Shown one piece after another: positions 20,553 to 36,831 of a DNA stretch of 64,000 bases. A program made the translations under genes and the position numbers. Origin of the DNA: Escherichia phage vB_EcoM_JNE01; the sequence record OR670491; one strand, written 5' to 3'. How positions within the stretch are numbered: the first letter of the stretch is position 1; each line of letters begins with the position of its first letter. The notes beneath the pieces were generated by a model, which had not been told where the DNA came from, searched no databases, and saw only the letters and a program-made list of their open reading frames with translations.

Positions 20553-20561
20553 GGCACTAAC

Positions 20562-23538: not shown

Positions 23539-23595
23539 TTGACAGTACTGAATAAAAGCGTATAATGTTTTACATCAGGTGGGGAATAGTTCCCC
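23539..23595 (+). promoter_or_regulatory. early-type promoter (TTGACA-16-TATAAT) plus 5' stem-loop GGGGAA-TAG-TTCCCC
   Basis: read directly. Confidence 0.55.
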
Positions 23596-23617
23596 ACTAT
23601 ATAAGAGGATTAAAAAA

Positions 23618-23857
23618 ATGGCTAAATCAAAAATGTTCTTAGGTCACAAAAATAAAACTCATTGGAATGTAAGCCTTTGGATTAATAACGATGAGGGATT
23701 GTATCGGTTGGCCCAGGACTTTATTAACGATAGCACTAATCGCAATGATGCGGCCCGTCATATGATGTTATTTTTAGAACAGACTGGACAAGATAAAACA
23801 CCGGACGGATTCAAATATAGCACTACTGCGATCCGTGCGGCAATGGTAGGAATGTAA
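23618..23857 (+). CDS. hypothetical small protein (paralog of 25659..25898)
   Basis: MAKSKMFLGHKNKTHWNVSLWINN...PDGFKYSTTAIRAAMVGM; SD AAGAGGA. Confidence 0.6.
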   Translation: MAKSKMFLGHKNKTHWNVSLWINNDEGLYRLAQDFINDSTNRNDAARHMMLFLEQTGQDKTPDGFKYSTTAIRAAMVGM

Positions 23858-23869
23858 TAGAATATATTT

Positions 23870-23906
23870 AAAGTACTATCATTTTTTTGCGATAGTACTT
23901 TATAAT
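23870..23906 (+). promoter_or_regulatory. dyad AAAGTACTATC-N10-GATAGTACTTT abutting TATAAT (operator-like)
   Basis: same dyad plus promoter upstream of the paralog at 36326-36364. Confidence 0.4.
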
Positions 23907-23943
23907 AGTGTTTTATTCATACACCAACGATAAGGGCAACAGC

Positions 23944-24210
23944 ATGAATATTAAGTATTTTGCGACGCGTGAACAAGCTCGGATCGCCGCTCGCCAGGAC
24001 GGGGCAACGTTTAAAGATATGGGCGTACAATCGGAACGTGGTAAACGTTGGGCCATTGTAAAGCGTAGTACCGCCAGATCATTACAGTACTGGTTAGCGG
24101 CCTTAAAAAGTCCCGATAGTGTATCGCGTCGAGTGGTAGAAATAAAGCTCGACCGAAAGGGCAACCGCGTGACCGTGTACCGTACTAAAAAGATAGCAGT
24201 ACTTGAATAA
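23944..24210 (+). CDS. hypothetical small protein (paralog of 36413..36808)
   Basis: MNIKYFATREQARIAARQDG...DRKGNRVTVYRTKK. Confidence 0.6.
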   Translation: MNIKYFATREQARIAARQDGATFKDMGVQSERGKRWAIVKRSTARSLQYWLAALKSPDSVSRRVVEIKLDRKGNRVTVYRTKKIAVLE

Positions 24211-24217
24211 AAAGTAC

Positions 24218-24276
24218 TTGCAAACTATGTTTAATGGCGTATAATGTTTTACATCGAGAGCGGGAACTCTTCCCGC
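24218..24276 (+). promoter_or_regulatory. early-type promoter (TTGCAA-16-TATAAT) plus 5' stem-loop GCGGGAA-CTC-TTCCCGC
   Basis: read directly. Confidence 0.55.
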
Positions 24277-24297
24277 CTATAACCTGGAGTAATAAAA

Positions 24298-24528
24298 ATG
24301 ACTAATATGTATATGACTGAAGTTAAAACCGTAAAAGATACTACCACGAATAAAACTACTTACTTACAGCGGATCTGCGGTGTATGGCAACGTATCAGCA
24401 AATCAAAGTACTTTAAATTAACATCATATGCAAATCGTTCGGATTCATTCAGTACTGAAATAAAAGGTAATAAAGTACACCAATACGGCACTTATTATTA
24501 TTACAGCCTGGACGCGATTGCAGTATAA
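24298..24528 (+). CDS. hypothetical small protein
   Basis: 76-aa ORF, SD GGAG. Confidence 0.6.
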   Translation: MTNMYMTEVKTVKDTTTNKTTYLQRICGVWQRISKSKYFKLTSYANRSDSFSTEIKGNKVHQYGTYYYYSLDAIAV

Positions 24529-24558
24529 GCAGTTTACAAATCTTTACAATTGCCGGTA

Positions 24559-24640
24559 TTGACTTATTTTGTCAGTACTGGCATAATGTATTCATTGGCA
24601 GATAAGCCGTAGCCCATAGGGTGCGGGAGTGTATCTATAG
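24559..24640 (+). promoter_or_regulatory. promoter (TTGACT/CATAAT) followed by conserved element AGCCCATAGGGTGCGGGAGTGTATCTAT
   Basis: seven copies of this element in the window, always downstream of a promoter. Confidence 0.45.
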
Positions 24641-24812
24641 AAAAATTAGTTTAGTATAGTTACAATTGTGCACCCGGTGGGTTAGCTGTTGTCATGGGGT
24701 ATATTATGCCAGTACTTGATAATTCTGTCAATACTTTTTTTTTACTATTCAGTACTGAAAACTATTTTTAAAAAGTACTTGCAAACTATGTTTAAAGGCG
24801 TATAATGTTTTA

Positions 24813-24895
24813 CATCAGGACGGGGAACGAAATAAGTAACTTCCCGTTAAGTAGCCCAGGAGTAAGGCACACGAAAAACTCCCCTGATAAAATAG
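24813..24895 (+). ncRNA. candidate structured leader / small RNA (about 80 nt)
   Basis: promoter-driven, no ORF, two hairpins; near-identical copy at 35214-35295. Confidence 0.3.
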
Positions 24896-24956
24896 TTTGA
24901 CAAATGTTTTTAAAAGCGTATAATACTTACATCAACTACTGAATGAGGGTTACAAA

Positions 24957-25568
24957 ATGAAAACTATCACTACTACTACTTTCGTTATGGATTTTTCTGA
25001 ATTGAACGCAGAACAACAAACGTCAGCTATCGAACTGGTTCGGGATCGTGAGCGTTCATGTGAGGATAATTTCTTTGCTGAGGGCGTTATCGAGTACTAT
25101 AAAGAAACAGTACTACCAGAATACGGCATAGATGAAGCTGAATTGCAATACAGTGGTTTTTGGTCGCAAGGTGACGGTGCATCAATCAGTACTGACAGCG
25201 TGGACGCAGTGAAGTTTTTACGCAAGATTAAAGCGTTAACGAAATATCGTTCTATCCGTCACTTGTTGAATGAAGATGATTTGGCAATGAGTGTAGAACG
25301 TTCACACTCTCGCTACGCACACGAAAACACGGTAAGCGGGTACATTGAATCGGCTTACACTGATTTAACCGCAAAACAAGAAACGTTAGTTAATGAGCTT
25401 GAGGAACTACTCACTGATACTATTCGTGAATTGTCCCGCAAGTTGTACCGTGATTTAGAGAATGCATATGAGGATCAATTCACTACTGAAAACATTACGG
25501 CACTGATTGAGGGTAACGAATATCAATTCAATGTTATTGATGGCGTAGTGGAATCAATCGAATATTAA
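24957..25568 (+). CDS. hypothetical protein
   Basis: 203-aa acidic ORF with its own promoter (TTGACA...TATAAT) and SD. Confidence 0.65.
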   Translation: MKTITTTTFVMDFSELNAEQQTSAIELVRDRERSCEDNFFAEGVIEYYKETVLPEYGIDEAELQYSGFWSQGDGASISTDSVDAVKFLRKIKALTKYRSIRHLLNEDDLAMSVERSHSRYAHENTVSGYIESAYTDLTAKQETLVNELEELLTDTIRELSRKLYRDLENAYEDQFTTENITALIEGNEYQFNVIDGVVESIEY

Positions 25569-25580
25569 TTTAAAAAGTAC

Positions 25581-25640
25581 TTGCAAACTAAGTTTAAAAG
25601 CGTATAATACTTTATATCGAGGCGGGGAGTGGTTCCCCGC
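25581..25640 (+). promoter_or_regulatory. early-type promoter plus 5' stem-loop GCGGGGA-GTGG-TTCCCCGC
   Basis: TTGCAA 25581-25586, TATAAT 25603-25608. Confidence 0.55.
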
Positions 25641-25658
25641 TCAAACGAGGATTTAAAA

Positions 25659-25898
25659 ATGGCTAGTACTAAAACTTACAACGGACACAAAAACAAAACT
25701 CATTGGAATGTAAGCCTTTGGATTAATAACGGTGAGTCATTGTATCGGCTTGCTCAAAGTTGCATCGCACAAAGTAGAACTAAAGATATTGCTGCGGAAT
25801 GTATGTACCGCAGATTAAAAGCCAACGGTACTACTACAACGCCGGACGGCTTTAAGTATAGCACTACTGCGATCCGTGCTGCAATGGTTGGAATGTAA
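25659..25898 (+). CDS. hypothetical small protein (paralog of 23618..23857)
   Basis: MASTKTYNGHKNKTHWNVSLWINN...PDGFKYSTTAIRAAMVGM. Confidence 0.6.
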   Translation: MASTKTYNGHKNKTHWNVSLWINNGESLYRLAQSCIAQSRTKDIAAECMYRRLKANGTTTTPDGFKYSTTAIRAAMVGM

Positions 25899-25955
25899 TA
25901 TTCAGTACTGAGATAATGGCGGGTAATAGTTCCCGCCTTTACTGAGGGTTATCTA

Positions 25956-26216
25956 ATGAGTAAAGTAATTAGCTATACAGCACTAAGCAAGACATTATCT
26001 ATTAGCCAGTGCACCGATGGTTATTGGCTATTTGATGAAACGCGTGGCATGAATTTAGCGATGCGTGCAAAAACTGCTGAGGCGGCGTATATTCAAGCAC
26101 TGGAATACTACCAGGAACGTTTAAAGGAAGTAGAAGAAGATTATAAAAGCCTCAAAGCGAAAGTAGATCATTTCGTCGGTCAATTCAACGAGGAAGACGA
26201 CGACAAACAATATTGA
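25956..26216 (+). CDS. hypothetical small protein
   Basis: 86-aa ORF preceded by hairpin GGCGGGTAATAGTTCCCGCC. Confidence 0.55.
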   Translation: MSKVISYTALSKTLSISQCTDGYWLFDETRGMNLAMRAKTAEAAYIQALEYYQERLKEVEEDYKSLKAKVDHFVGQFNEEDDDKQY

Positions 26217-26224
26217 AAAAGTAC

Positions 26225-26283
26225 TTGCAATTAGTTTTCAGTACTGTATAATGGTTTACATCAAAGGGAGAAATGGTTCTCCC
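26225..26283 (+). promoter_or_regulatory. early-type promoter plus 5' stem-loop GGGAGAA-ATGG-TTCTCCC
   Basis: TTGCAA 26225-26230, TATAAT 26247-26252. Confidence 0.55.
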
Positions 26284-26302
26284 TGGTAATGAGGAAAATA
26301 AA

Positions 26303-26524
26303 ATGGCTAATATCACTACTCTTTCCCAACTGGAAGCACTGGTGAAATCTATGCGGGAACATGCCGACAAAATCGGCGTACAAGATCCAGCCGTTTGCTT
26401 CTGCGACGAATTGAATGATGATACCCTGGTAATAGCAGAAGTCCAGGACGTTTCTAACTATTCCTCGCGTTACACTGGCGGCGTAGCAAATAAAGGCGAC
26501 TTCTGTTTATACCTTACAAAATAA
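26303..26524 (+). CDS. hypothetical small protein
   Basis: start moved to MANITTLSQ with SD GAGGAAA. Confidence 0.6.
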   Translation: MANITTLSQLEALVKSMREHADKIGVQDPAVCFCDELNDDTLVIAEVQDVSNYSSRYTGGVANKGDFCLYLTK

Positions 26525-26529
26525 CAACG

Positions 26530-26559
26530 CGGGGAGATAATAACTCCCCGTTACTTTTT
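26530..26559 (+). terminator. rho-independent terminator
   Basis: CGGGGAG-loop-CTCCCCG hairpin plus T-run. Confidence 0.6.
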
Positions 26560-26767
26560 CAGTACTGAATCATTTAATAGACGGATCTCGGCACCCGGTG
26601 GGTTAGTGACTGTTTCGTCTTGATGTAGTAATTATGCCAGTACTGGATGCACTTGTCAACAACTATTTTTCAAATACTTTTTATTAAAATACTTGCAATT
26701 AGTTTTTAAACGCGTATAATGTTTTGCATAGGGGGAGCGGTTCCCCTGGTAACTAAGGAATAATAAA

Positions 26768-27004
26768 ATGCTTGAACAAATCAAATCAACGTCTGCGAAT
26801 GTAACGGGAACGGTATCACACTTTACTAGTGATGAATCGCGTGGTGTTCCTTATTGTGCTGTACATGTAAACACTGATGGCAACTACTGGTTTACGGTTT
26901 ACGGATCATATTCATTTGGACGGCCAGGGCATCAAAAAATTCTGGATAAAGTACAACCAACGGGTAAAAATATCACTGCCGAAATGTTTTATAAAAAATC
27001 ATAA
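26768..27004 (+). CDS. hypothetical small protein
   Basis: 78-aa ORF with promoter, hairpin and SD upstream. Confidence 0.6.
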   Translation: MLEQIKSTSANVTGTVSHFTSDESRGVPYCAVHVNTDGNYWFTVYGSYSFGRPGHQKILDKVQPTGKNITAEMFYKKS

Positions 27005-27009
27005 AGTAC

Positions 27010-27068
27010 TTGCAATTAGTTTTTAGTACTGTATAATATTTTACATCGCAAGGGGAAACGGTTTCCCC
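27010..27068 (+). promoter_or_regulatory. early-type promoter plus 5' stem-loop GGGGAAA-CGG-TTTCCCC
   Basis: TTGCAA 27010-27015, TATAAT 27032-27037. Confidence 0.55.
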
Positions 27069-27088
27069 TGGTAACTAAGGATAATCAA

Positions 27089-27388
27089 ATGAAAGTTGCA
27101 ATCATCGCCCTGGCTTTATCTGTATCGTCTTTCGCTGTTAACGCTTCCGTTGATGTACCGCGTGAAAAATTCATTCAGTGCACTGTTGCAATGACTAACG
27201 AGGAAACGGCTGAGATTGTTACCAAATCCCTGGAACTGGCCCCTGCAATGTTTGCTAATGGCCCGTACCATGAAGAAGATGATCAGGGTAGCACGACCAT
27301 CTATTACGATGCAAAAAGTAAACGCGGTTCAGTTACTGTAATGGATACTGAGAAAGTTACATTCACGGGAGTAATTAATTGTTTTTAA
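27089..27388 (+). CDS. small secreted/periplasmic protein (Sec signal peptide)
   Basis: MKVAIIALALSVSSFAVNA/SVD: hydrophobic N-region with AxA cleavage motif. Confidence 0.65.
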   Translation: MKVAIIALALSVSSFAVNASVDVPREKFIQCTVAMTNEETAEIVTKSLELAPAMFANGPYHEEDDQGSTTIYYDAKSKRGSVTVMDTEKVTFTGVINCF

Positions 27389-27404
27389 TGAAGTACTGAA
27401 TCAT

Positions 27405-27434
27405 AAGCCCACTATAAGAAGTGGGCTTTTTTTA
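27405..27434 (+). terminator. rho-independent terminator
   Basis: AAGCCCACT-loop-AGTGGGCTT plus T-run. Confidence 0.65.
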
Positions 27435-27518
27435 TTGTAGTACTGAATACTTTAAAAATAGTTTTGAAATAGTAGTTGACATTACCAGGGAAAGGCGTAG
27501 AATGTATTACATCAGGAC

Positions 27519-27600
27519 GGGGAACACTAAGTAGACCGCCAGTAAGTCGAACGAAAAACTGGACACGACCTGGAAACTTTGATAAACTAACTTACACTTT
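27519..27600 (+). ncRNA. candidate structured 5' leader (diverged copy of the 80-nt element)
   Basis: begins CATCAGGACGGGGAAC like copies at 24813 and 35214. Confidence 0.25.
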
Positions 27601-27618
27601 AATTGAGGAATTAAAAAA

Positions 27619-28098
27619 ATGGCAAATGTAAAATCATTCTTTAAAGCACTGGTATCTTCTGACGTATCTATCGCCGCTGAATTGCTGGCTGACCTGGATA
27701 ATGATACCATGAAAGCAGTACGCAATAATTTTAATATGGCGTACAGTGCAGCAAAAGAACTGCAAGCCAAAAAGGTAGCAGAACTGGAAGCGGCAAAGGC
27801 AGAACGTGAAGCAGAACTGCAAGCAACAATCGAAAGCATCCAGGCGGCGGTAAGTGGATTGGATATCGAGATCGTAACCGATATGGCACATAAAGCCCTA
27901 GCTGCAAAATACGGTGAAGTAAAAGCGGTTAAAGAAAAGAAATGGATTCAGGACCGCGTTAACGTAGTACTTGACAACGGGGAAGAATATCTTATTCCTG
28001 TACGCGGTAACTGCATTGCCGTAGTACTGGACGCGATTAACTCCAGTGGTATGACACGCGAGGAATGGATCGAAGCTCATCGCAAAGTTGAAGCATAA
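27619..28098 (+). CDS. hypothetical protein with central coiled-coil-like segment
   Basis: 159 aa; AKKVAELEAAKAEREAELQATIESIQAAV. Confidence 0.65.
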   Translation: MANVKSFFKALVSSDVSIAAELLADLDNDTMKAVRNNFNMAYSAAKELQAKKVAELEAAKAEREAELQATIESIQAAVSGLDIEIVTDMAHKALAAKYGEVKAVKEKKWIQDRVNVVLDNGEEYLIPVRGNCIAVVLDAINSSGMTREEWIEAHRKVEA

Positions 28099-28119
28099 CA
28101 ATAAAAGTACTGAATCACT

Positions 28120-28147
28120 AGCCCACCTTAAACGGTGGGCTTTTTTG
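28120..28147 (+). terminator. rho-independent terminator
   Basis: AGCCCACC-TTAAAC-GGTGGGCT plus T-run. Confidence 0.65.
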
Positions 28148-28373
28148 TGTTTATCGTTTACCAGGCCACCAGCACCGCCTAGAAACGATTCTAACGCATT
28201 AAACTGATTATCTGATGCATTGCCCTAGCTGGTGGCGTTAAGGCTGTAAGAACGCGATTGAGAGCGTTTAAAGTATTTTGCAAAAAGTAATAAAAAGTAC
28301 TTGCACGATTAAGAGATTAGCGTATAATTAATTACATCAAGGCAAGACACCTTAACTAACTGAGGATATAAAG

Positions 28374-28526
28374 ATGAATACTTATGACCTGGATTGTTTT
28401 ACTTTACAAGTAATGTCAGTATGCAGTAAGAAAGATTGGTCATCAAAGGAATTTAAAGCAGTTATCGCGTGTGCAAAACACGGCAAGACTATCAATGAAA
28501 CGGCATCAATCATTGATAAACTTTAA
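28374..28526 (+). CDS. hypothetical small protein (50 aa, not in ORF track)
   Basis: hand-translated; promoter and SD GAGGA upstream. Confidence 0.45.
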   Translation: MNTYDLDCFTLQVMSVCSKKDWSSKEFKAVIACAKHGKTINETASIIDKL

Positions 28527-28595
28527 AAAATAGTTTGACAATAGTTTTAAGTACTGGCATAATACATACATCAACTACTGAATAGGAATTAAAAA

Positions 28596-28823
28596 ATGGC
28601 TATTATCATTACTCGCGTATCTGGTACTACTGGCAACGAACAAGTAGTTGCAGTCATTACCAACAAGGAAGGTGCGGAATTGCAAAATGCAATGAATACC
28701 TGGGCCGTTAATGAGTTCGGTCAGTGGGCAAGTGTAGCATACATTGAAACCTATCAAGTGCCGTCGATTAGTTTAACTGATTTGGGCGTTGAGCGTATCC
28801 TTTGCCTGGATGAATTAAATTAA
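28596..28823 (+). CDS. hypothetical small protein
   Basis: 75-aa ORF with promoter and SD. Confidence 0.6.
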   Translation: MAIIITRVSGTTGNEQVVAVITNKEGAELQNAMNTWAVNEFGQWASVAYIETYQVPSISLTDLGVERILCLDELN

Positions 28824-28908
28824 AAAAGTACTTGCAAAGTAAATCGAATAAAGTATAATACATTACATCAAGGGGAGAAATGGTTCTCCCCACTACAAGG
28901 AAACTAAA

Positions 28909-29052
28909 ATGAAAACTTGTCAATGTGGTCATAAATCTATTACGGGTTTTAAGCGGGGCGTTGCTCTTTGCCAGTACCATTATAATTTACAAGTATGGGG
29001 TAAAGAATGGGCCGACCAGGTGGAAGCAGCAAAGAAAGCAAAAAGTAAGTAA
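28909..29052 (+). CDS. hypothetical small protein (47 aa, not in ORF track)
   Basis: hand-translated MKTCQCGHKS...; promoter, hairpin and SD upstream. Confidence 0.45.
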   Translation: MKTCQCGHKSITGFKRGVALCQYHYNLQVWGKEWADQVEAAKKAKSK

Positions 29053-29140
29053 AATATTATCACAGTACTATTGACATAGTTTGATAGTACTGGCATAATA
29101 GATTTTATCAAGACAACATATTAATTTAAGGAATACAAAA

Positions 29141-29464
29141 ATGGCTAAAACTATCATTAACACCGTTTCCCTGGCTGCAATCCGTGCAATCAATGTTGAC
29201 GGTAAACGTTGGACTGATACATATGGCAATACTTATCATTCTTGTCATGTAAGCGTTGAACTGGATAACGGTTTGAATGATCTGGCGGTTGAATCATTTA
29301 CTTATGGCTATGAAGATGCATATCAACAAACGGCGTTAGATCTATTAAAGGAATCAGTAGACGGGCTTAATACTGATGAAACCTCCCTTACTCGTTTGTG
29401 CAATGATCTTAATATCCCGTTGCATTGTACTGTACAGAATGTTAAACGCAAAAAAGATCTTTAA
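29141..29464 (+). CDS. hypothetical protein (paralog of 35990..36313)
   Basis: shared RWTD..GNTYHSC.VS and C-terminal KRKKD. Confidence 0.6.
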   Translation: MAKTIINTVSLAAIRAINVDGKRWTDTYGNTYHSCHVSVELDNGLNDLAVESFTYGYEDAYQQTALDLLKESVDGLNTDETSLTRLCNDLNIPLHCTVQNVKRKKDL

Positions 29465-29544
29465 TTAGCTTTACTTTATGCAGATACTTTGATATAGTGT
29501 CTGCATAGGGGAAAGAAATTAAATTAACTTAAGAGGATCGTATA

Positions 29545-29814
29545 ATGAAAAATATCAGTACTTTAATCGATACAGGTACTCATGTTCGTCGGTCTATGGT
29601 TGCAACCAGTACTACAAAACAAGTACCAAGCGGTTATCTTGTATTTGTGCACGATGGTAAACTCCTGGAACGTTCAATCAATTTTGATGTTAAAAACAAT
29701 TGCCGTTTTATTATCTTTAAGCGTGAGCAATATAAAATTGATTTACCAGCAAAGCCCATAAGCGGGGCGTACAACGTGCAATCATTGTTTGAACGTCAAC
29801 CATACACCTATTAA
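29545..29814 (+). CDS. hypothetical small protein
   Basis: 89-aa ORF, SD GAGGA. Confidence 0.55.
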   Translation: MKNISTLIDTGTHVRRSMVATSTTKQVPSGYLVFVHDGKLLERSINFDVKNNCRFIIFKREQYKIDLPAKPISGAYNVQSLFERQPYTY

Positions 29815-29865
29815 TCAAAACATCGTTAGCGGTCGATTTAGGCCGCGTATATTGGGGATTATACC

Positions 29866-30138
29866 ATGAACGTTAATCAAGTACTGAATGAGATCGAAAG
29901 CATCATTAAACCAATGAAACGCATTGATGCTATGTTAACACCGGAAGAATGCCGCCTTTATGAGCGTTACAGCGTCGAACAAGTCCAGGCAATGGCTATG
30001 GCTACCCCAGCCGTTAAACCGCCTGAGAATGCGTTACAGGACGTTACAGGGGATTATATCATCAATCCAGTACTAGGGAAGATGGCTGCAATCACCGAAG
30101 ATCAACAAGATTACTTAAGTCAGTACTTAAAAGGTTAA
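29866..30138 (+). CDS. hypothetical small protein
   Basis: 90-aa ORF. Confidence 0.55.
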   Translation: MNVNQVLNEIESIIKPMKRIDAMLTPEECRLYERYSVEQVQAMAMATPAVKPPENALQDVTGDYIINPVLGKMAAITEDQQDYLSQYLKG

Positions 30139-30143
30139 TTAAT

Positions 30144-30353
30144 ATGCTTACTGTACAGGATAAGATCGACATCTTAAAGGTTAATATGTATGTGATTGAT
30201 GCAGTACCTGGTAAAGTATTTGCATACGATGACAGTACTGTAAGCGATTTCTACTATAGCCAGGACGTGGGGGATCTTTCTGTACAGTCGGTTATTGAAA
30301 ACGTAGTTAATGCAGCGTATGAGCATTTACTTTCAAATAGTACTTGCAATTAG
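30144..30353 (+). CDS. hypothetical small protein
   Basis: 69-aa ORF; 3' end runs into next promoter. Confidence 0.5.
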   Translation: MLTVQDKIDILKVNMYVIDAVPGKVFAYDDSTVSDFYYSQDVGDLSVQSVIENVVNAAYEHLLSNSTCN

Positions 30354-30422
30354 TTTTTAAACGCGTATAATGTTTTACATGAAGGGGAGAAATGATTCTC
30401 CCCACTAATTAAGGAATATGAA

Positions 30423-30569
30423 ATGAAAGCATCAAAAAAGAGTAATACTAAGAAAGCACGTTCAACCTTAGATGGGGTATTCCCTTTACGTTTCGTTGAT
30501 GAAGTGGTGTCCTACCCGCCGGGCCTTACTCCTGAGATGGTAGAAAGTTTGCGTAAATCTAAAAAATAG
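30423..30569 (+). CDS. hypothetical small basic protein (48 aa, not in ORF track)
   Basis: hand-translated; promoter, hairpin and SD upstream. Confidence 0.45.
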   Translation: MKASKKSNTKKARSTLDGVFPLRFVDEVVSYPPGLTPEMVESLRKSKK

Positions 30570-30650
30570 TACTTGCAATTAGTTTTTAGTACTGTATAAT
30601 AGTTTACATGAAGGGGAGAAATGATTCTCCCCAATAACAGGAGAATCAAA

Positions 30651-30803
30651 ATGAAACAATACAACGCTCGGTTTGATGTTACTATCGGTAACGGCAAAGG
30701 TCAATTCTCTTTCAGTACTCGCAAAAGTTATACAGAAAACTTCCTGCGTAATTGTGCACTGACCGCCGCTCAAATTAAACATTACTTTCAGGCTAAAAAA
30801 TGA
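30651..30803 (+). CDS. hypothetical small protein
   Basis: start moved to MKQYNARF downstream of promoter hairpin; SD AGGAGAA. Confidence 0.5.
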   Translation: MKQYNARFDVTIGNGKGQFSFSTRKSYTENFLRNCALTAAQIKHYFQAKK

Positions 30804-30889
30804 AAACATTAGCTTACTATAGTTCGGCCCTGGTCGGTGCATTGATCGCGGCGTTGTTAGTAACCTATCTATTCTTTATGGTGATTTAA
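30800..30889 (+). CDS. candidate 29-aa single-TM peptide
   Basis: ATGA overlap with previous gene; hydrophobic MKTLAYYSSALVGALIAALLVTYLFFMVI. Confidence 0.3.
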   Translation: MKTLAYYSSALVGALIAALLVTYLFFMVI

Positions 30890-31033
30890 ATGAATCCAAC
30901 AGGTTTAAACTATAAAAGTTGTTCGGCGTTTACGAAAGCAAATAAAGCGAATGCACGTAAAGCGAAAGTACAAGAATACATCAAGCAAGGCATGACGCGA
31001 AAGGCGGCGATTCTAAAAGCTAAAAATAAATGA
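30890..31033 (+). CDS. candidate 47-aa basic protein
   Basis: TAA-ATG abutting start; hand-translated. Confidence 0.3.
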   Translation: MNPTGLNYKSCSAFTKANKANARKAKVQEYIKQGMTRKAAILKAKNK

Positions 31034-31113
31034 AAAAAGTGGTTGACTCCGGTCAGCCATTTTGCTATTATATATTCATTGAGAGATAGCTCACTAGCCC
31101 ACAGGGTGCATAA
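31033..31113 (+). promoter_or_regulatory. terminator/promoter hairpin plus conserved element AGCCCACAGGGTGCATAAGTGTATCTAT
   Basis: TTGACT inside inverted repeat, TATTAT -10, then conserved element. Confidence 0.45.
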
Positions 31114-31254
31114 GTGTATCTATTATATGAGTATTGAGTACTGAAAACTATTTTAAAAGTATTTGTAGAAAGTACTTGCAAACTATCTCAATAAGCGTAT
31201 AATGTTTTACATCGAAAGGGGAAACGGTTTCCCCTGATAATAAGGAAACAAATC

Positions 31255-31596
31255 ATGACTATCTCAATTGCTCAATCTAACTTTGAAAACGAAATCATCG
31301 CCCAGGCACTGCGTTTAAATGATGGTCGGGCCGAAATTAATTACGGTTTCAATTCAGGCGGTTGTGAAAAATATCAGTACTTTGTAACGGCTGATGGCGG
31401 TGTCCTGGGTATCAATACAGTTATTGTAAACATCCAAAAAATTAATTTCAATGATCCAGACGATAGCCAGTTTTACATCACTGGCGTAGACGTGAACTAT
31501 GAGGATGACTCACTAACTGATGATCACACTGGTGAGAAGTTAGAGAGTGCATACGGTGAAGATGATTATCAGTCAGTACCGGAAGATTTTGAATAA
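31255..31596 (+). CDS. hypothetical acidic protein
   Basis: 113-aa ORF; second promoter, hairpin and SD upstream. Confidence 0.6.
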   Translation: MTISIAQSNFENEIIAQALRLNDGRAEINYGFNSGGCEKYQYFVTADGGVLGINTVIVNIQKINFNDPDDSQFYITGVDVNYEDDSLTDDHTGEKLESAYGEDDYQSVPEDFE

Positions 31597-31693
31597 TATT
31601 AAAAAAATAGTTTGACAATAGATTATAGTACTGTATAATAGTTTACATCAAGGGGAGAAAAACTTCTCCCCACTAACAGAGAGAGAAAACAAA

Positions 31694-31906
31694 ATGGCTA
31701 ATATCTGCACTGTACTGAAAAATGCAAAACAAGTTTTATTTTCTGATCACGATCATTTAAACAAGGATATTACTGGCGTTCGGAATATCAAAGATGTAAA
31801 AAGTGTTATGGGTATCTATTGCAATATGAAACGTGTTGGAACGTTCGGCGACAAAGTACTATACCAGGCAGGGGATTACAATTTTACACTGACTATCATT
31901 AACTAA
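31694..31906 (+). CDS. hypothetical small protein
   Basis: 70-aa ORF with promoter, hairpin and SD. Confidence 0.6.
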   Translation: MANICTVLKNAKQVLFSDHDHLNKDITGVRNIKDVKSVMGIYCNMKRVGTFGDKVLYQAGDYNFTLTIIN

Positions 31907-31998
31907 AAATATATTACCAGTACTATTAAATCTATTGACAACGTTTGATAGTACTGACATAATAACTTTTATCAACTACACTACTAAGGAATTAAAAA

Positions 31999-32178
31999 AT
32001 GGCTATCATCGCAAAAACTGAAATCGTTGGTCTGGATTCTATCATCATGACGTTTGAAGATCAAAAAGGTATGTATGTAGTTTCATATGGTGATTATGTT
32101 CGGGAGTATGAAACGGTAGACGAAGCCTTTGAAAGTTATATTCGCCAGGTGAATAAAGCATACGACGACTACCGCTAA
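31999..32178 (+). CDS. hypothetical small protein (59 aa, not in ORF track)
   Basis: hand-translated MAIIAKTEIVG...; promoter and SD AAGGAA. Confidence 0.45.
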   Translation: MAIIAKTEIVGLDSIIMTFEDQKGMYVVSYGDYVREYETVDEAFESYIRQVNKAYDDYR

Positions 32179-32268
32179 AATATATTACCAGTGCTATTGA
32201 CAAAGTTTGATAGTACTGTATAATAAGTTTTATAAACAGTAGTTAACTTAACCTAAGAGAGAAATAAA

Positions 32269-32412
32269 ATGATCGCACTGGATTCATTCATCGACGCAGT
32301 ACTGGCAAAAACTGGCGAGGATCTGACCGCAGAACAATACGCGATGATCGAGCAATGTCAGCAAAACGGTAAATCGGTGAAAGATACTGTTAAGATTATC
32401 CGCAAGATGTAA
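32269..32412 (+). CDS. hypothetical small protein (47 aa, not in ORF track)
   Basis: hand-translated; promoter TTGACA...TATAAT and SD upstream; terminator downstream. Confidence 0.45.
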   Translation: MIALDSFIDAVLAKTGEDLTAEQYAMIEQCQQNGKSVKDTVKIIRKM

Positions 32413-32418
32413 GATTAT

Positions 32419-32447
32419 AGCCCACTGGTTAACGCTGGTGGGCTTTA
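32419..32447 (+). terminator. terminator hairpin containing a Chi octamer
   Basis: AGCCCAC-loop-GTGGGCT; loop/stem contains GCTGGTGG. Confidence 0.5.
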
Positions 32448-32517
32448 ATCCTTTACCCTATACAATGCCAGTACTCAACCGTTTATCTCGTTAGAATGCG
32501 TTACAGGACGTTTGACA

Positions 32518-32715
32518 ATGATTAGCATGAAATCAGTACAAAAACAAATAGAAACATTATCAAAAATTAAACGTAAACAGTACTCGTTAGAATATACAAT
32601 CAATGGTAACTATCATCTAATGAAAGAGAATAATTTTATCGTCATTGATGAATCATTGCAAGTTATTAGTATAGTACTGAAAGCATTAATCAATGACAGA
32701 AAAAAATTAAAATAA
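32518..32715 (+). CDS. hypothetical small protein
   Basis: ORF; weak SD; start uncertain. Confidence 0.35.
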   Translation: MISMKSVQKQIETLSKIKRKQYSLEYTINGNYHLMKENNFIVIDESLQVISIVLKALINDRKKLK

Positions 32716-32804
32716 TCTATTGACAATATCCTCCAGTACTGGCATAATACTTACATCAAGACGAGAACGTCGCTAACCCATAGGGTGCACAAATGTAACT
32801 ATAT

Positions 32805-32895
32805 AATATCGATCAATAAATGATCAAAAAAGTACTGGATCAATTTAGCATAAGGCGTATAATTCTGATCAATTCTTGATCAAAGGCAATATACG
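32805..32895 (+). promoter_or_regulatory. GATC-rich palindromic cluster (five GATC sites, TGATCAA repeats)
   Basis: ATCGATCAATAAATGATCAA...GGATCAAT...TGATCAATTCTTGATCAA, upstream of the TraR-like gene. Confidence 0.35.
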
Positions 32896-33044
32896 CAGTT
32901 GAATTTATATAGACAGTACAAAGGCGTTACTATCCGTGGTAATGCTGGTGGATATGTAGTATCATATGGTTTGAATAAGATAAACACTAGTAGTATTATT
33001 GTAGCATTACAGTACTATAGTATTTTTATAATGAGGTTAAAATA

Positions 33045-33302
33045 ATGGCAGTAGGATACGCGAAAGACGGGGCCGAACAAGACGAGATTCACGCAGTGAT
33101 TCAGGCCGCCGTTAACCACGCTAGAAAGCAAATTAACGCACAAAGAGAATCACTGGTACATTGCCTCGACTGCGGCGATAAAATCCCTGAGAATCGACGC
33201 CAGGCCGTTATAGGGTGCATGTATTGTATTACTTGCCAGGAGGATCATGATAGTACTTTTAAAAGAGATCCGCGTAATTGTTGGCATAGATCTATGAGAT
33301 AA
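33045..33302 (+). CDS. TraR/DksA-family C4 zinc-finger protein
   Basis: CLDCGDKIPENRRQAVIGCMYCITCQ matches the CxxCGxxIPExRR...CxxCQ signature. Confidence 0.7.
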   Translation: MAVGYAKDGAEQDEIHAVIQAAVNHARKQINAQRESLVHCLDCGDKIPENRRQAVIGCMYCITCQEDHDSTFKRDPRNCWHRSMR

Positions 33303-33365
33303 AAAGTATTGACAGTACTGAAAGATAGTGTATAATGTTTTATATCTTAACTGAGGATAGTAATC

Positions 33366-33722
33366 ATGGGAATACAACATATCACGCGTACTACTGACAA
33401 TGGCGAGATCACTGGTTATCAGGTACAGGGCAAAGTAGCACAATTGCAGTACTGGTTTGTTAAACGTGGAATCATTGCACCGGATCTTGATTATGACCGT
33501 GTAGCGTTTATTGATTCTCTTTATGTTGATCCTGATAGTCGGGGCAATGGTGAAGGTAACGAATTAATGAATGCCTTTATTGATGCCGCCGATGATTCAG
33601 ATTGTATCATCTTAGAATGCGATACGGGAGAAGATAACGCCTTTAATCTTAAAGAATGGTACGAAGGTTTCGGATTCGAGGTACTGATCGATAGTGAATA
33701 TCCTATCATGATTTTATCATAG
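33366..33722 (+). CDS. possible GNAT-like acetyltransferase domain protein
   Basis: VAFIDSLYV...RGNGEGNELMNAF resembles the R-x-x-G-x-G CoA-binding motif; weak. Confidence 0.4.
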   Translation: MGIQHITRTTDNGEITGYQVQGKVAQLQYWFVKRGIIAPDLDYDRVAFIDSLYVDPDSRGNGEGNELMNAFIDAADDSDCIILECDTGEDNAFNLKEWYEGFGFEVLIDSEYPIMILS

Positions 33723-33800
33723 TACTTGCATTTAGTTTTCAGTACTGTTATAGTACTTGCATCAAGGGGAAACATCTTCCCCTACTAAGAGGAAATAAAA

Positions 33801-33989
33801 ATGGAAAACTTATCAAGTATTTTAGTACAAGATGATTTCGGTAATCCTGGAAGTGCTATCATTGTTCGGGGCAATAAAGCAACGTTTGTTATTGCTGGTG
33901 GACCCGTACAGCGTAGCATTAAAAATAATGCTGTTACCATTAATAATGTACGCTATCGCTTAGATAAAGAATTAATTCATAAACTGTAA
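33801..33989 (+). CDS. hypothetical small protein
   Basis: 62-aa ORF with promoter, hairpin and SD. Confidence 0.55.
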   Translation: MENLSSILVQDDFGNPGSAIIVRGNKATFVIAGGPVQRSIKNNAVTINNVRYRLDKELIHKL

Positions 33990-34016
33990 TATTAATTTAA
34001 TAGAGGATAACAATAA

Positions 34017-34340
34017 ATGTACATTCATACTACTATCACAAAGGAAGTCCGTTGCCAGTTCGAAAGTATTCCGGGCGTATGTTTCATCACTGGTACGTTT
34101 TCCCCTGGTGATCGTGATAATCCAGTACTGTTACAATTACGCCATCCATCATGGGATAAAGCATTTGATCTACCGTTGAATGAATTCGCAACTACTGCTG
34201 AAAAGTACATTAAAAATATTCGCGAGAATGATCGACTATTCATTAATGCTTTTAGTGATGCCGCGTTAAGTGAGATCCATGCTGTATTGGTTGCAATCAT
34301 GGAATCAATGGAGAAAACTATATTCAAACAAGGTGAATAA
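34017..34340 (+). CDS. hypothetical protein
   Basis: 107-aa ORF, SD GAGGA. Confidence 0.55.
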   Translation: MYIHTTITKEVRCQFESIPGVCFITGTFSPGDRDNPVLLQLRHPSWDKAFDLPLNEFATTAEKYIKNIRENDRLFINAFSDAALSEIHAVLVAIMESMEKTIFKQGE

Positions 34341-34423
34341 AAACTATTGACAATGCAATCCAGTACTGTATAATAGTTTACATGAAGGAGAGAAATGATT
34401 CTCCCCACTAAGAGGAAAGAAAA

Positions 34424-34636
34424 ATGCAAGGTCAACTAATCGTTCGTAAATGGTCTGATACTAACGAAAAACCGTGGGATGTACAATACATCGCCCCAAA
34501 TGGTGAATCCAGATATCAACCAGGTGTAACGCATAGTACTGAGCAATTCGCCGCCGCTCATCGCGAACGTCTGTTACAATCAATGCAGCAAGGTTCCGGT
34601 GAAAAATTCATTCAGGATCATTGGCTGAAAGATTAA
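34424..34636 (+). CDS. hypothetical small protein
   Basis: 70-aa ORF with promoter, hairpin and SD. Confidence 0.6.
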   Translation: MQGQLIVRKWSDTNEKPWDVQYIAPNGESRYQPGVTHSTEQFAAAHRERLLQSMQQGSGEKFIQDHWLKD

Positions 34637-34722
34637 AAAGTACTTGCACAGTACTGAATAAAGTGTATAATGTTTTATATCGGAAGGGGAATAGTTCCCC
34701 TCCGAACAAAGAGGAAAGTATA

Positions 34723-34896
34723 ATGGTCCAGGTAGAATTAACAGTACTGAAAGATCTGTTTTATCGGATTGGTACTACTGGCGAATATCCGAAGGGTGAT
34801 AATGCAAAACTTTACGTATCACTCGACTTATGGCAACGCGAACAATTAGCAACGGCCTGGCGTAAAGGCAAAGCAGATAGCGAGGTGAAAGCATGA
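34723..34896 (+). CDS. hypothetical small protein
   Basis: start moved to MVQVELTVLK downstream of promoter hairpin; SD AGAGGAAA. Confidence 0.5.
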   Translation: MVQVELTVLKDLFYRIGTTGEYPKGDNAKLYVSLDLWQREQLATAWRKGKADSEVKA

Positions 34897-35042
34897 AAGA
34901 ATTCTTATTTGAAGTAGTGTTTCAAGGTGTCGGTAATAACCAACTGATTCGATCAAGTGGTTATAATGTTAACCAGGCATGGAATAACATTAAACAAATG
35001 TACCCGAACGCTATCACATATCGCAACCCGAAAGAAGTTTAA
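34893..35042 (+). CDS. hypothetical small protein (49 aa, not in ORF track)
   Basis: ATGA overlap; hand-translated. Confidence 0.4.
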   Translation: MKEFLFEVVFQGVGNNQLIRSSGYNVNQAWNNIKQMYPNAITYRNPKEV

Positions 35043-35060
35043 AAATAATTGAAAAAGGGA

Positions 35061-35136
35061 TTGACTCCGGTCAGTCCCTTTGTTATTATATACGCATAGA
35101 AACAAATTAGCCCACCGGGTGCATAAATGTATCTAT
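35061..35136 (+). promoter_or_regulatory. terminator/promoter hairpin GGGATTGACTCCGGTCAGTCCC plus conserved element AGCCCACCGGGTGCATAAATGTATCTAT
   Basis: near-identical copies at 38336 and 41086. Confidence 0.45.
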
Positions 35137-35213
35137 TGTTTGCTGGTGGCTAGTACTGAAAACTATTTTTAAAAAGTACTTGCATTGTACTTAGAATCAA
35201 GTATAATGTTTTA

Positions 35214-35295
35214 CATCAGGACGGGGAACGAAATAAGTAACCCCGTTAAGTAGTCCAGGAGTAAGACATACGAAAAACTCCCCTGATAAAATAGT
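35214..35295 (+). ncRNA. candidate structured leader / small RNA (about 80 nt)
   Basis: second copy of the 24813-24895 element; differences preserve hairpin pairing. Confidence 0.3.
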
Positions 35296-35356
35296 TTGAC
35301 AATAGAAAGTAAACGAGTATAATACTTACATCAACCACTGATAAGGAAACATAAAA

Positions 35357-35632
35357 ATGCGGATTCTACTGACAGCTAACGAAATCGAACAAGTACTGAC
35401 TACTAATCTGGAACAATGGAAACGTGAAGCAGATATCCAGGCGGTTCAATGCCTTAACGATAAGTTAACGCCAGATGACTTAAGCACGATTGTTGATCCA
35501 CAATTTTATGAAGATATTCACGACACGTCTTTAAGCGTCGAGGATGTACTTGATAAGCACTACATTGATACTGATTTACATGTTTACGGTCGTAAAAACT
35601 TTATCACTATTCACGACATTTACAATACTTAA
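35357..35632 (+). CDS. hypothetical protein
   Basis: 91-aa ORF with third promoter and SD. Confidence 0.6.
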   Translation: MRILLTANEIEQVLTTNLEQWKREADIQAVQCLNDKLTPDDLSTIVDPQFYEDIHDTSLSVEDVLDKHYIDTDLHVYGRKNFITIHDIYNT

Positions 35633-35718
35633 GTATTGACAAAGTATCTTAGTACTGTATAATAGTTTACATCAAGGGGGGGAATGGTTCCCCTCCTAAC
35701 TAAAAGAGAGAAATAAAA

Positions 35719-35901
35719 ATGGCTAAGTGCACTATCTGTAATAAAGAAATAGTATTAGTTCCAAGTGCCCGTGAACGTGCCGCTCGGTTCGGTGGCAAAG
35801 CGTCAGACTATACAAAAATGTTTACTACCCATACAGCTTGCCAGGTAGCAAAACGTTCACAAGAAAGCGTAGAATTAATGCGTAAACTTTCCAAAAAATA
35901 A
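35719..35901 (+). CDS. hypothetical small protein
   Basis: 60-aa ORF with promoter, hairpin and SD. Confidence 0.55.
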   Translation: MAKCTICNKEIVLVPSARERAARFGGKASDYTKMFTTHTACQVAKRSQESVELMRKLSKK

Positions 35902-35989
35902 GTATTGACAAAGTATCTTAGTACTGTATAATAGTTTACATCAAGGGGGGGGGAATGGTTCCCCTCCTAACAAAGAGAGAGAAATAAAA

Positions 35990-36313
35990 ATGGCTATGAT
36001 CCTTACCCAGAAAGTAGAACTGAAAATTGTAACCTCCTTTGACATTAAAGTTAATCGGTGGACTGATAGCCACGGCAATACTTACCACTCCTGCTACGTG
36101 TCCGCATTGATTGGTGATCGCTGGGAAGACCTGGGACACGAAACCTTTACATACGGTTACGGCACACAAGGCGAGTACACGGGTTTAGAAATCATTAAGG
36201 AAACTGTAATAGGTTTCAACCCGAAAGAGAAAGTACTACACAGAATTGAGAAAGAGATCAACAAAGAAATTACAGTTCGCTACTACGATGTAAAACGTAA
36301 GAAAGACATGTAA
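35990..36313 (+). CDS. hypothetical protein (paralog of 29141..29464)
   Basis: shared RWTD.HGNTYHSCYVS and C-terminal KRKKDM. Confidence 0.6.
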   Translation: MAMILTQKVELKIVTSFDIKVNRWTDSHGNTYHSCYVSALIGDRWEDLGHETFTYGYGTQGEYTGLEIIKETVIGFNPKEKVLHRIEKEINKEITVRYYDVKRKKDM

Positions 36314-36325
36314 TAGAATCCATTT

Positions 36326-36364
36326 AAAGTACTATTTGACATTGCCCAGATAGTACTTTATAAT
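36326..36364 (+). promoter_or_regulatory. dyad AAAGTACTAT-N-ATAGTACTTT enclosing TTGACA, abutting TATAAT (operator-like)
   Basis: TTGACA 36337-36342, TATAAT 36359-36364; dyad arms on both sides of -35. Confidence 0.45.
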
Positions 36365-36412
36365 AGACTCTAACTTGTAGTACTAATTAACTTAACTAAT
36401 AGGATGTACACC

Positions 36413-36808
36413 ATGATTACTAAATTCTTCGCTACCCGTGAACAAGCTCGCATCGTTGCCCGTGAGGAAGGTGAAACATTTAAAGACATGGGTAAAGATT
36501 CTCCTACTGGTAAACGCTGGGCGGTACAGTTCAAAGAGATCTCTGATATTGTGAATTCACCTGAGCCTGTACTTACAGCAGCAGAACTAAAGCAAGCTCA
36601 AGAACTGGCTGAAGTACTGAACGCTCAAGATGACTTCTTGAAAGGTTCTGATATTGAAGTTACAGTTAACGCAAATGCATGGACTCACGCGGATCACCTG
36701 GCAAACCTTAAGCGTCCAAGTGAACTGATTCGTAACCAGAAAGAGATCCGTCATGACCGTAAAGGAAACCGTGTTACCGTATACAGTAAACGCCGCCAGG
36801 TTATCTAA
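36413..36808 (+). CDS. hypothetical protein (paralog of 23944..24210 with insertion)
   Basis: FATREQARIVAREEGETFKDMG...HDRKGNRVTVYSKRR. Confidence 0.6.
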   Translation: MITKFFATREQARIVAREEGETFKDMGKDSPTGKRWAVQFKEISDIVNSPEPVLTAAELKQAQELAEVLNAQDDFLKGSDIEVTVNANAWTHADHLANLKRPSELIRNQKEIRHDRKGNRVTVYSKRRQVI

Positions 36809-36831
36809 TACCTTGCAGTACTAACCAACAC

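Follow-up and report, generated by a model that had tools for sequence, protein, structure and literature searches.

Dispersed paralog pairs among promoter cassettes of a putative early terminal-repeat region in Escherichia phage vB_EcoM_JNE01

Three dispersed gene pairs in a region of one-gene cassettes

The DNA analysed here is a stretch of 64,000 nt from Escherichia phage vB_EcoM_JNE01 (sequence record OR670491), referred to below as the window, in which three families of small genes are each present as a dispersed pair (pair 1, DUF7249; pair 2, phrog_8127; pair 3, phrog_6246; Table 1). The explanation we consider probable is that these are old, diverged paralogs lying in an early terminal-repeat region that is shuffled as one-gene promoter cassettes, by recombination between the cassettes. 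The region would consist of about 55 self-contained expression cassettes, each with a near-consensus sigma-70 promoter, a leader hairpin, a Shine-Dalgarno (SD) site and a small open reading frame (ORF). The 30–45 promoter/leader copies, 70–95% identical, would supply dispersed homology, and recombination from cassette to cassette, probably carried out by the phage's own machinery, could delete, insert, replace or relocate single genes, leaving the expression of their neighbours undisturbed and, over time, scattering duplicated genes. As a finding on three gene pairs this is ordinary. Plasticity of this kind is already known from T4-type phages and no new mechanism is needed, but the instance in Rak2-like jumbo phages is new, and no description of cassette shuffling in these phages was found in the searchable literature on them.

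An all-against-all BLASTP comparison of the window ORFs returned exactly these three pairs within the region, plus one weak candidate. The pairs had been proposed in a sequence-only reading, and all three are upheld at the coordinates it gave, with full-length alignments (pair 1, 66% identity over 80 aa, E 1e-37; pair 2, 38%, E 5e-21; pair 3, 39% across all 107 aa, E 2e-29). These full-length matches, together with matches to curated families, show that the similarities are not confined to short low-complexity segments. The copies lie about 2 kb (pair 1), 12.5 kb (pair 2) and 6.8 kb (pair 3) apart, with three, about 30 and about 18 genes between them. The contrast between dispersed and tandem duplication drawn in the same reading is also real, as the other paralogs of the window are arranged in tandem (5697–16965, 17309–20747, 42644–48017 and 52166–55406).

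The nucleotide identity of the paralogs in a self-BLAST is 73% for pair 1, 70% for pair 2 and not detectable for pair 3. High nucleotide identity that includes the flanks, the mark of a recent segmental duplication, was found in none of the three. The proteins were compared by local tBLASTn with the corresponding loci of fEgEco12, vB_Ec-M-J, 121Q, G17, EJP2, CMSTMSU, RaK2, phiWec188 and A5-4. Orthologues in relatives are 84–100% identical in protein, as against 38–40% for the paralogs of pairs 2 and 3, and in fEgEco12, 121Q and G17 each copy of these two pairs has the slot that it has in the window, as is also the case in the CMSTMSU record with its many frameshifts. Since both copies hold the same slots and the paralogs are far more diverged than the orthologues, the duplications would predate the divergence of the compared E. 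coli Asteriusviruses. The pairs are thus old and did not arise by recent shuffling in this genome.

The weak candidate would be a fourth dispersed pair, formed by the products of 28374–28526 (50 aa) and 32269–32412 (47 aa), which share 27% identity over 45 aa (E 2e-4) and have similar C-terminal ends (...GKTINETASIIDKL and ...GKSVKDTVKIIRKM).

Genome identity and the terminal-repeat region

A megablast search with positions 23000–37000 matched 202 phage records and identifies the window as Asteriusvirus, a 121Q/PBECO4-like (Rak2-like) jumbo coliphage. The best match is fEgEco12 (95.5% identity over 78% of the query), followed by vB_Ec-M-J, CRJP21, SP27, G17, phAPEC6 and PBECO4. The vB_Ec-M-J DNA that matches the window falls within its annotated feature 'Direct Terminal Repeats' (1–21525), and in fEgEco12 restriction mapping bore out a direct terminal repeat of 20,993 bp predicted by PhageTerm (PMC13070987). 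Positions 1–687 of the fEgEco12 record align to 21340–22038 of the window, and 20400–21089 to 41969–42642, so that the repeat ends map to 21340 and about 42550, the right-hand end being interpolated. The interior is collinear with fEgEco12 at 92–97% identity. All three pairs are located inside this region, within one single copy of the repeat.

The sign of the GC skew switches near 22 kb, and every gene downstream is on the + strand. About 55 small genes (56 ORFs called) occupy the repeat region. By analogy with other terminally repeated phages, this would be the first DNA to enter the cell, and its genes are presumably expressed early. Its left end has about 1.8 kb free of genes, with tandem repeats at 22159–22259 (ACGGCTAA x 4.4, within a 48-nt x 2.1 array) and at 22884–23048 (a 66-nt unit x 2.5, 97% identity and rich in AGTACT). 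The ORF listed from 23106 (23106–23525) begins inside a promoter, and its real start is 23163 (MATQITK...), as judged from the cassette layout and from 363-nt homologues in 121Q, vB_Ec-M-J and EJP2.

The promoter, hairpin and Shine-Dalgarno cassette

When the 110 nt upstream of each gene are read, the same design is seen before most of them: an A-rich stretch, TTGACA or TTGCAA, 16–17 nt, and TATAAT, often with TG before the -10 box, followed on its 3' side by a conserved TTTACATC, a G/C hairpin (e.g. GGGGAGAAATGGTTCTCCCC), a purine-rich SD sequence and ATG. Self-BLAST of the window gave hundreds of matches, many of them 70–110-nt intergenic repeats between 23 and 41.7 kb. A profile made from 16 copies gave 30 nhmmer hits on the + strand and a single weak hit on the - strand. 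Thirteen promoters are perfect (TTGACA-N16/17-TATAAT, 12 of 12) and about 30 further ones are near consensus, all of them on the + strand between 23 and 41.7 kb. The family has about 30–45 copies with a median identity of 72% and a range of 70–95%, and because its members stand before most of the region's genes, having a promoter in common does not set the duplicated genes apart. The early region of phiWec188 (Phapecoctavirus) follows this promoter-hairpin-SD layout as well, with hairpins of another sequence.

The 95 nt upstream of each duplicated gene were compared with those of 34 other genes. Co-duplication of the promoter as a general rule is ruled out by this comparison for pairs 1 and 3. 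It had been claimed from sequence alone that the promoter was copied with the gene in two cases; this holds for pair 2 only, as the pair 1 promoters are just second-best mutual matches (71/92), and unrelated cassettes of the family match them equally well or better (74/91 and 74/92). The copy B cassette of pair 1 has its best match in the cassette at 24207, not in that of copy A.

A hairpin of 7–10 bp was found in all 24 leaders tested, 4–7 nt past the presumed +1 (dG -7 to -17 kcal/mol, mean z -3.6). The stems vary in sequence between copies, and pairing is retained through changes on both sides. The hairpins are from single-sequence folds; in an RNAalifold fold of a MAFFT alignment of the leaders the hairpin was partly out of register. 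None of the 24 is followed by a U tract (T run in the DNA), so intrinsic termination is unlikely, and stabilisation of the 5' end of the mRNA may be the likelier role. Scans of the window with Rfam and for tRNA found nothing, and the repeated leaders therefore correspond to no described RNA family. For nine of the 24 cassettes the closest relative is the adjacent family member, against two expected (P = 0.001), which fits local duplication during insertion.

Two other types of non-coding element are present. Four near-identical composite elements (Table 1) have the stem AAAGGGATTGACTCCGGTCAGTCCCTTT with a TTGACT -35 box inside it, and a standard cassette follows about 100 nt after each; all four pass a terminator-like scan, and each resembles a terminator combined with a promoter. 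At 24751–24942 and 35152–35341, before the genes at 24957 and 35357, lies a 192-nt non-coding repeat (87% identical), which contains a standard promoter with hairpin, a conserved stretch of about 45 nt and a second perfect promoter. The arrangement is one of tandem promoters, or possibly specifies a short non-coding transcript.

The individual pairs

Pair 2 is best read as a true duplication within the phage lineage. Both proteins match the phrog_8127 profile over its full length (E 4e-26 and 8e-37), and they align with each other over about 45 N-terminal and 30 C-terminal residues, the long copy having about 45 extra residues in mid-protein. The start codon of copy B is taken as 36413 rather than 36404 because homologues begin MITKF. 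The two promoters are reciprocal best matches and form a distinct class that has no leader hairpin, in which the -35 region lies within an inverted repeat (AAAGTACTAT...ATAGTACTTT) that extends into TATAAT. The shared sequence starts at the stop codon of the upstream gene, with the same left junction in both copies (ATGTAATAGAAT...). Given this homologous and distinctive promoter, the duplicated unit would be promoter, leader and ORF, that is, exactly one cassette. The same promoter structure is found in the 121Q and G17 orthologues, and the EJP2 promoter at the copy A position combines an A-like loop with a B-like leader.

A search of 5.8 billion proteins found only 44 members of the phrog_8127 family, all in Rak2-like jumbo phages. 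At the copy A position, EJP2 has a gene of long form (125 aa; 66% identity to copy B), which groups with the short A form in a neighbour-joining tree. The short form would therefore derive from a long one by internal deletion, the gene behind DUF7249 having lost about 45 codons from its interior after the duplication. RaK2 has a single phrog_8127 gene, in the order 35357-like gene, ORF352, phrog_8127 gene, 36873-like gene, and because homologues of 35357 and 36873 flank this single copy, the B locus appears to be the older one.

The pair 1 proteins both pass the Pfam DUF7249 model (PF23907) at 47.4 and 50.7 bits, against a gathering threshold of 27 bits, and the motifs HWNVSLWINN and TPDG..YS..IRAAMVGM are common to them and to distant members of the family. 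Their DNA alignment extends about 95 nt upstream of the genes (23523–23859 against 25566–25900, 73%). Copy A is present in all relatives fetched, while copy B is absent from fEgEco12, 121Q and G17 and present in vB_Ec-M-J, PBECO4, SHEFM2K and BF17. Relatives of both are found in other coliphages. A phiWec188 gene matches copy A at 94% (aa) and 88% (nt) identity, the DNA match beginning at the -35 hexamer, and phage A5-4 (145 kb, Vequintavirinae in GenBank) has a gene with 91% identity to copy B; A5-4 holds both types, the A-type 1.8 kb from the B-type. In a neighbour-joining tree the two types form separate deep clades; the A-type clade is large, with genes from 135–155-kb myoviruses and even from genomes of about 42–44 kb (e.g. 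phage PGT2), and the B type branches outside it. Pair 1 would then bring together two lineages that split deep in a widespread family of early genes. Copy B would be a facultative cassette occupying a hot slot, and the A and B types alike seem to have been exchanged with two other coliphage groups of about 145–150 kb (Phapecoctavirus, and a phage filed under Vequintavirinae).

The pair 1 genes also form a mosaic. Their first 99 nt are 81% and their last 57 nt 91% identical, with mostly identical codons, but the middle 84 nt are only 39% identical. The ends of DUF7249 are conserved family-wide, and the central segment looks like one that has been swapped, or evolves fast, between conserved ends.

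Pair 3 matches the phrog_6246 profile at full length (E 3e-40 and 5e-37). Copy A has the same slot in fEgEco12, vB_Ec-M-J, 121Q and G17, and the adjacency of a pair 3 gene followed by a pair 2 gene is also found in EJP2. The two promoters are unrelated; the one before 35990 is instead a copy of that of the neighbouring gene at 35719, with 90 of 93 positions the same. An exhaustive profile search returned 645 family representatives (E up to 0.001), compared to only three relatives from a word-indexed protein search, so the family is a broad one. In a neighbour-joining tree of this family, copy A groups with the single EJP2 gene and copy B with other sequences. Pair 3 may be an older duplication or a double acquisition, its likeness still recognisable in the coding sequence only. 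RaK2 ORF352, which lies upstream of the RaK2 pair 2 gene, was considered as a pair 3 homologue and rejected, as it gives no alignment.

Rearrangement at cassettes and alternative slot occupants

Breakpoints of collinearity were collected from chained BLASTN matches of window positions 22900–42600 against five relatives, with CMSTMSU excluded for its frameshifts. Among 50 distinct breakpoints, 29 lie in cassette intervals, which make up 24% of the region and would be expected to hold 12 (binomial p = 2.7e-7), and several more are within a few nucleotides of the edge of such an interval. For many of the events the matches overlap in one genome, the pattern of an insertion or deletion flanked by two cassette copies.

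The clearest differences concern single genes. Collinearity with fEgEco12 is lost at the start codon of pair 1 copy B and regained at the base where the next cassette begins, and this segment is replaced in fEgEco12 by a single 54-aa gene. The slot, which follows a 203-aa gene (24957–25568), has four alternative occupants in six genomes: pair 1 copy B (the window and vB_Ec-M-J), the g07 family (fEgEco12 and EJP2), an 83%-identical homologue of window gene 26768 (121Q) and the unrelated 88-aa G17_00048 (G17). Two gene families change slot between genomes, namely g07/EJP2_519/MJ_002, whose vB_Ec-M-J member is in a different slot before pair 1 copy A, and window gene 26768 with 121Q gp272.

Beside pair 3 copy B, a 60-aa gene (35719–35901) is enclosed by two near-identical cassettes. 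The gene is missing in 121Q, which has one cassette instead (a 167-nt gap in the window and a 103-nt overlap in 121Q), and the unit looks like a recent one-gene insertion or deletion. Extra genes of vB_Ec-M-J at 23553–23613 and 29024–29147 are likewise each flanked by duplicated cassette sequence. The gene order between the copies of pairs 2 and 3 is largely kept in the E. coli relatives fetched, and that of the right half also in RaK2. Further afield, 11 of the 56 ORFs have homologues (30–88% identity) within 6 kb of the A5-4 early region, in scrambled order, and ten have homologues in phiWec188.

These observations bear on a further claim of the sequence-only reading, that the pairs reflect duplication and shuffling at the level of cassettes and not simple tandem amplification. 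The shuffling is borne out by the dispersed one-gene units, the enrichment of breakpoints in cassettes and the alternative slot occupants. The duplication part fares less well: the promoter is no marker of co-duplication, the pairs are old, and pair 1 need not have arisen by duplication within this genome.

Table 1. Coordinates of the gene pairs, their promoters and related features in the window
Feature	Position	Strand	Evidence
Putative early region matching the ~21-kb Asteriusvirus direct terminal repeat	21340..42550	+	fEgEco12 mapping; vB_Ec-M-J annotation
Span of the promoter-cassette family	21698..41715	+	~30 profile hits; ~45 promoters scoring >=10 of 12
Standard promoter/hairpin/SD cassette, pair 1 copy A	23526..23617	+	nhmmer E 6e-15; 12/12 promoter 23539-23566; hairpin -14.2 kcal/mol
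Pair 1 copy A, 79-aa DUF7249 protein, A type	23618..23857	+	PF23907, 47 bits; phrog_871
Promoter/leader, pair 2 copy A	23858..23943	+	Inverted repeat AAAGTACTATC...GATAGTACTTT ending TATAAT, -35 hexamer lost; 13-bp stem 23869-23902
Pair 2 copy A, 88-aa phrog_8127 protein, short form with internal deletion	23944..24210	+	BLASTP; PHROG profile
Standard promoter/hairpin/SD cassette, pair 1 copy B	25568..25658	+	nhmmer E 7e-21; hairpin -15.6 kcal/mol
Pair 1 copy B, 79-aa DUF7249 protein, B type, variable slot	25659..25898	+	PF23907; phrog_871
Variable segment, copy B start codon to first base of next cassette	25661..26205	+	fEgEco12 collinearity breaks at 25661, resumes at 26205
Pair 3 copy A, 107-aa phrog_6246 protein	29141..29464	+	BLASTP; PHROG profile
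Composite element, 12-bp-stem hairpin with TTGACT, T-rich run, TATTAT	31036..31071	+	Copies at 35054-35089, 38329-38364, 41079-41114
Two near-identical cassettes (35628-35718, 35897-35989) around 60-aa gene 35719-35901	35628..35989	+	35619-35725 against 35888-35996, 93%
Pair 3 copy B, 107-aa phrog_6246 protein, immediately before pair 2 copy B	35990..36313	+	BLASTP; PHROG profile
Promoter/leader, pair 2 copy B	36314..36412	+	Same inverted repeat, loop TTGACA, then TATAAT, 12/12; promoter 36336-36364
Pair 2 copy B, 131-aa phrog_8127 protein, long form, locus common with RaK2	36413..36808	+	BLASTP; PHROG profile

Alternative explanations

The members of each pair could have been acquired independently by horizontal transfer, as xenologues, with no duplication in the lineage. 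Such an origin seems rather unlikely for the pairs as a whole. It would account for the tree positions in pair 1 (copy A nested within genes of Phapecoctavirus and Vequintavirinae, copy B in a separate clade with the A5-4 gene), for the carriage of both DUF7249 types by A5-4, and for pair 3 copy A being about equally far from copy B (39%) and from homologues in phages of other genera (34–48%); however, the pair 1 tree is explained equally well if each copy was transferred after an ancient duplication, and the restriction of the pair 2 family to Rak2-like jumbo phages, the inverted-repeat promoter common to its copies and the intermediate in EJP2 all speak for duplication. Still less probable, in our view, is an origin of the pairs as tandem duplicates that were later split by unrelated insertions, dispersal being secondary. 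Elsewhere in the window paralogs form tandem arrays as a rule, the pair 1 copies have just three genes between them, and one-gene insertions do occur in the region, but the genes that separate the copies of pairs 2 and 3 are numerous and largely conserved in order. For pair 2, distant insertion fits better, as copy B is at the locus shared with RaK2 and copy A lies behind a different gene with the same left junction. Chance or low-complexity matches, or an artefact of assembling the terminal repeat, can practically be dismissed even with short proteins and an A+T-rich genome, given E-values of 1e-37 to 5e-21 over full lengths, the curated families and the conservation of the copies in independently sequenced genomes; the copies are 34–62% diverged within a single repeat copy, which neither collapse nor duplication in assembly can yield.

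Several points also weigh against the interpretation preferred here, that old paralogs have been scattered by cassette recombination. Recombination at the cassettes is itself a mechanism deduced from sequence comparison, and early transcription is deduced solely from the type of promoter and the position in the terminal repeat. The trees are neighbour-joining trees of proteins of 80–130 aa and carry no support values. The cassette intervals were partly defined by hand and the ends of BLAST high-scoring pairs are imprecise by several nucleotides, and selection for intact genes would also push surviving breakpoints to gene boundaries; the overlaps of flanking cassettes are a stronger argument for homologous exchange than the enrichment of breakpoints. 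For pair 3, nothing beyond the coding sequence links the copies, and duplication and double acquisition cannot be told apart.

A wider proposal is offered tentatively, and we consider it more doubtful than not. Beyond its regulatory part, the promoter-hairpin-SD unit might act as a shared recombination adaptor, through which the unrelated Asteriusvirus, Phapecoctavirus and Vequintavirinae trade ready-to-express early genes singly from a common, cross-genus pool of cassettes, with incoming cassettes being adapted to an AGTACT-rich style. The promoter of DUF7249 type A provides one example that fits this adaptation, reading TTGACAGTACTG in the window and TTGACAGCACG in phiWec188.

Comparison with known systems

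The closest parallel is with the promoter-early stem-loop (PeSL) elements of T4-type phages, which join a strong sigma-70 promoter to a GGGG...CCCC stem-loop and lie at indel ends and within hyperplastic regions (Arbiol et al. 2010, PMC2839356; Comeau et al. 2014, PMC4122927). PeSL mini-circles have been shown experimentally in phage RB49 (PMC2839356), and terminator function has been shown for the stem-loops (PMC2839356; PMC4122927). As with PeSLs, the window has dozens of sigma-70 promoters near consensus, with A/T-rich DNA on their 5' side and with a G/C stem-loop, an SD sequence and a start codon; the small genes that they precede, in a hyperplastic early region, are of unknown function, and indels or replacements between close relatives end in or beside these cassettes. 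The four composite elements (31036, 35054, 38329 and 41079), in which the stem-loop covers the -35 box and a T-rich run comes next, resemble the PeSL class of RB49 and phi1. Unlike in most PeSLs, the standard hairpin comes after the -10 box, in the transcribed leader, and has no U tract, so that a terminator is unlikely. The host genomes also differ, this being a Rak2-like jumbo phage with a long direct terminal repeat and not a circularly permuted T4-type genome, and similar cassettes, one of them homologous (DUF7249 copy A), also occur in the unrelated Phapecoctavirus and Vequintavirinae phages.

In phage T5 the pre-early region lies in a long direct terminal repeat, the first DNA to reach the cell, where many small genes are preceded by strong promoters of host type. 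The terminal-repeat region of the window is likewise long, with small genes and strong host-type promoters, and by analogy may also enter first, although the window has no identified counterpart of the two-step DNA transfer or of the A1/A2 genes of T5; no sequence relationship to T5 was seen, and no search aimed at one was made. Gene duplication is common in this group of phages, and tandem paralog arrays are found in jumbo phages such as CBB, for which 22 paralogous ORFs were reported (PMC5259590); the window holds four such arrays, but the three pairs differ from them in being dispersed single cassettes. Integron cassettes provide an analogy only: there, too, single-gene units are gained, lost and reordered at defined boundaries in one array, but the region has no integrase and no attC sites, each cassette has its own promoter, and exchange is presumably by homologous recombination.

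If the region does consist of interchangeable, self-expressed one-gene cassettes, this would explain why near-identical phages differ in gene content, and would mark facultative genes such as the second DUF7249 copy. Genes for host takeover or counter-defence are expected in the first-injected early region of jumbo phages, and nearly all of the genes in this one are of unknown function. Very different groups of coliphages share circulating early genes, which helps in the choice or engineering of therapeutic phages, and the PeSL idea would be extended past the classical T4-type phages.

Protein function

According to Pfam and PHROGs, all three families are of unknown function (DUF7249/phrog_871, phrog_8127 and phrog_6246). 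Sequence searches of the PDB with the pair proteins found no relatives, and the larger proteins that have a C-terminal pair 3 domain showed no Pfam domains. A confident AlphaFold model of pair 3 copy A (pLDDT 86) has three meander strands, two helices and a final strand, and a Foldseek search of the PDB with this model gave no match with E below 0.001. An RNase-H-like nuclease fold (terminase nuclease, Mos1, endonuclease V) was considered and set aside, the matches having E of at least 0.027 and TM of at most 0.42, which is no evidence for it. In genomes of about 42–45 kb, DUF7249 genes lie about 2–2.8 kb from the start of the record, and this location, together with the position and promoters of the pair genes, may suggest early roles in host takeover or counter-defence.

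AGTACT and other features of the window

The palindrome AGTACT (a ScaI site) occurs 301 times in the window, 14-fold more than the 22 +/- 4.6 expected from shuffles, and many other 6-bp palindromes are wholly absent. About 70% of the sites are coding, in all three frames (81/68/63), and they are about three-fold denser between genes, with C favoured before and G after the motif. The fetched loci of 121Q, EJP2 and RaK2 are similarly enriched (about 17-fold), but those of phiWec188 (Phapecoctavirus) and A5-4 are not, despite having some genes in common. Of the 45 early promoters between 23000 and 41700, 37 have AGTACT at one of two preferred positions, either abutting the -35 hexamer (AGTACTTGCAA) or supplying the TG of an extended -10 box (AGTACTGTATAAT), and 13 have two or more sites. 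The motif might be one for protein binding or DNA modification; no paper describing such an enrichment was found. A 4-kb block at 48001–52000 has no AGTACT, compared to about 19 expected from the average density of the window, and contains six genes for proteins of 133–203 aa, none with a Pfam match. It may be recently acquired DNA.

The tandem array at 5697–16965, on the - strand, consists of about ten paralogs of roughly 360–450 aa with RCC1-like repeats (Pfam RCC1, with WD40_RLD below the cut-off), and homologues are labelled 'GTPase regulator' or 'BNR repeat' proteins in the EJP2 record. Each of these genes is preceded by its own repeat of about 110 nt, which therefore makes up a second intergenic repeat family, on the - strand. 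The other three arrays are of small paralogs (about 60 aa, 75 aa and 150 aa).

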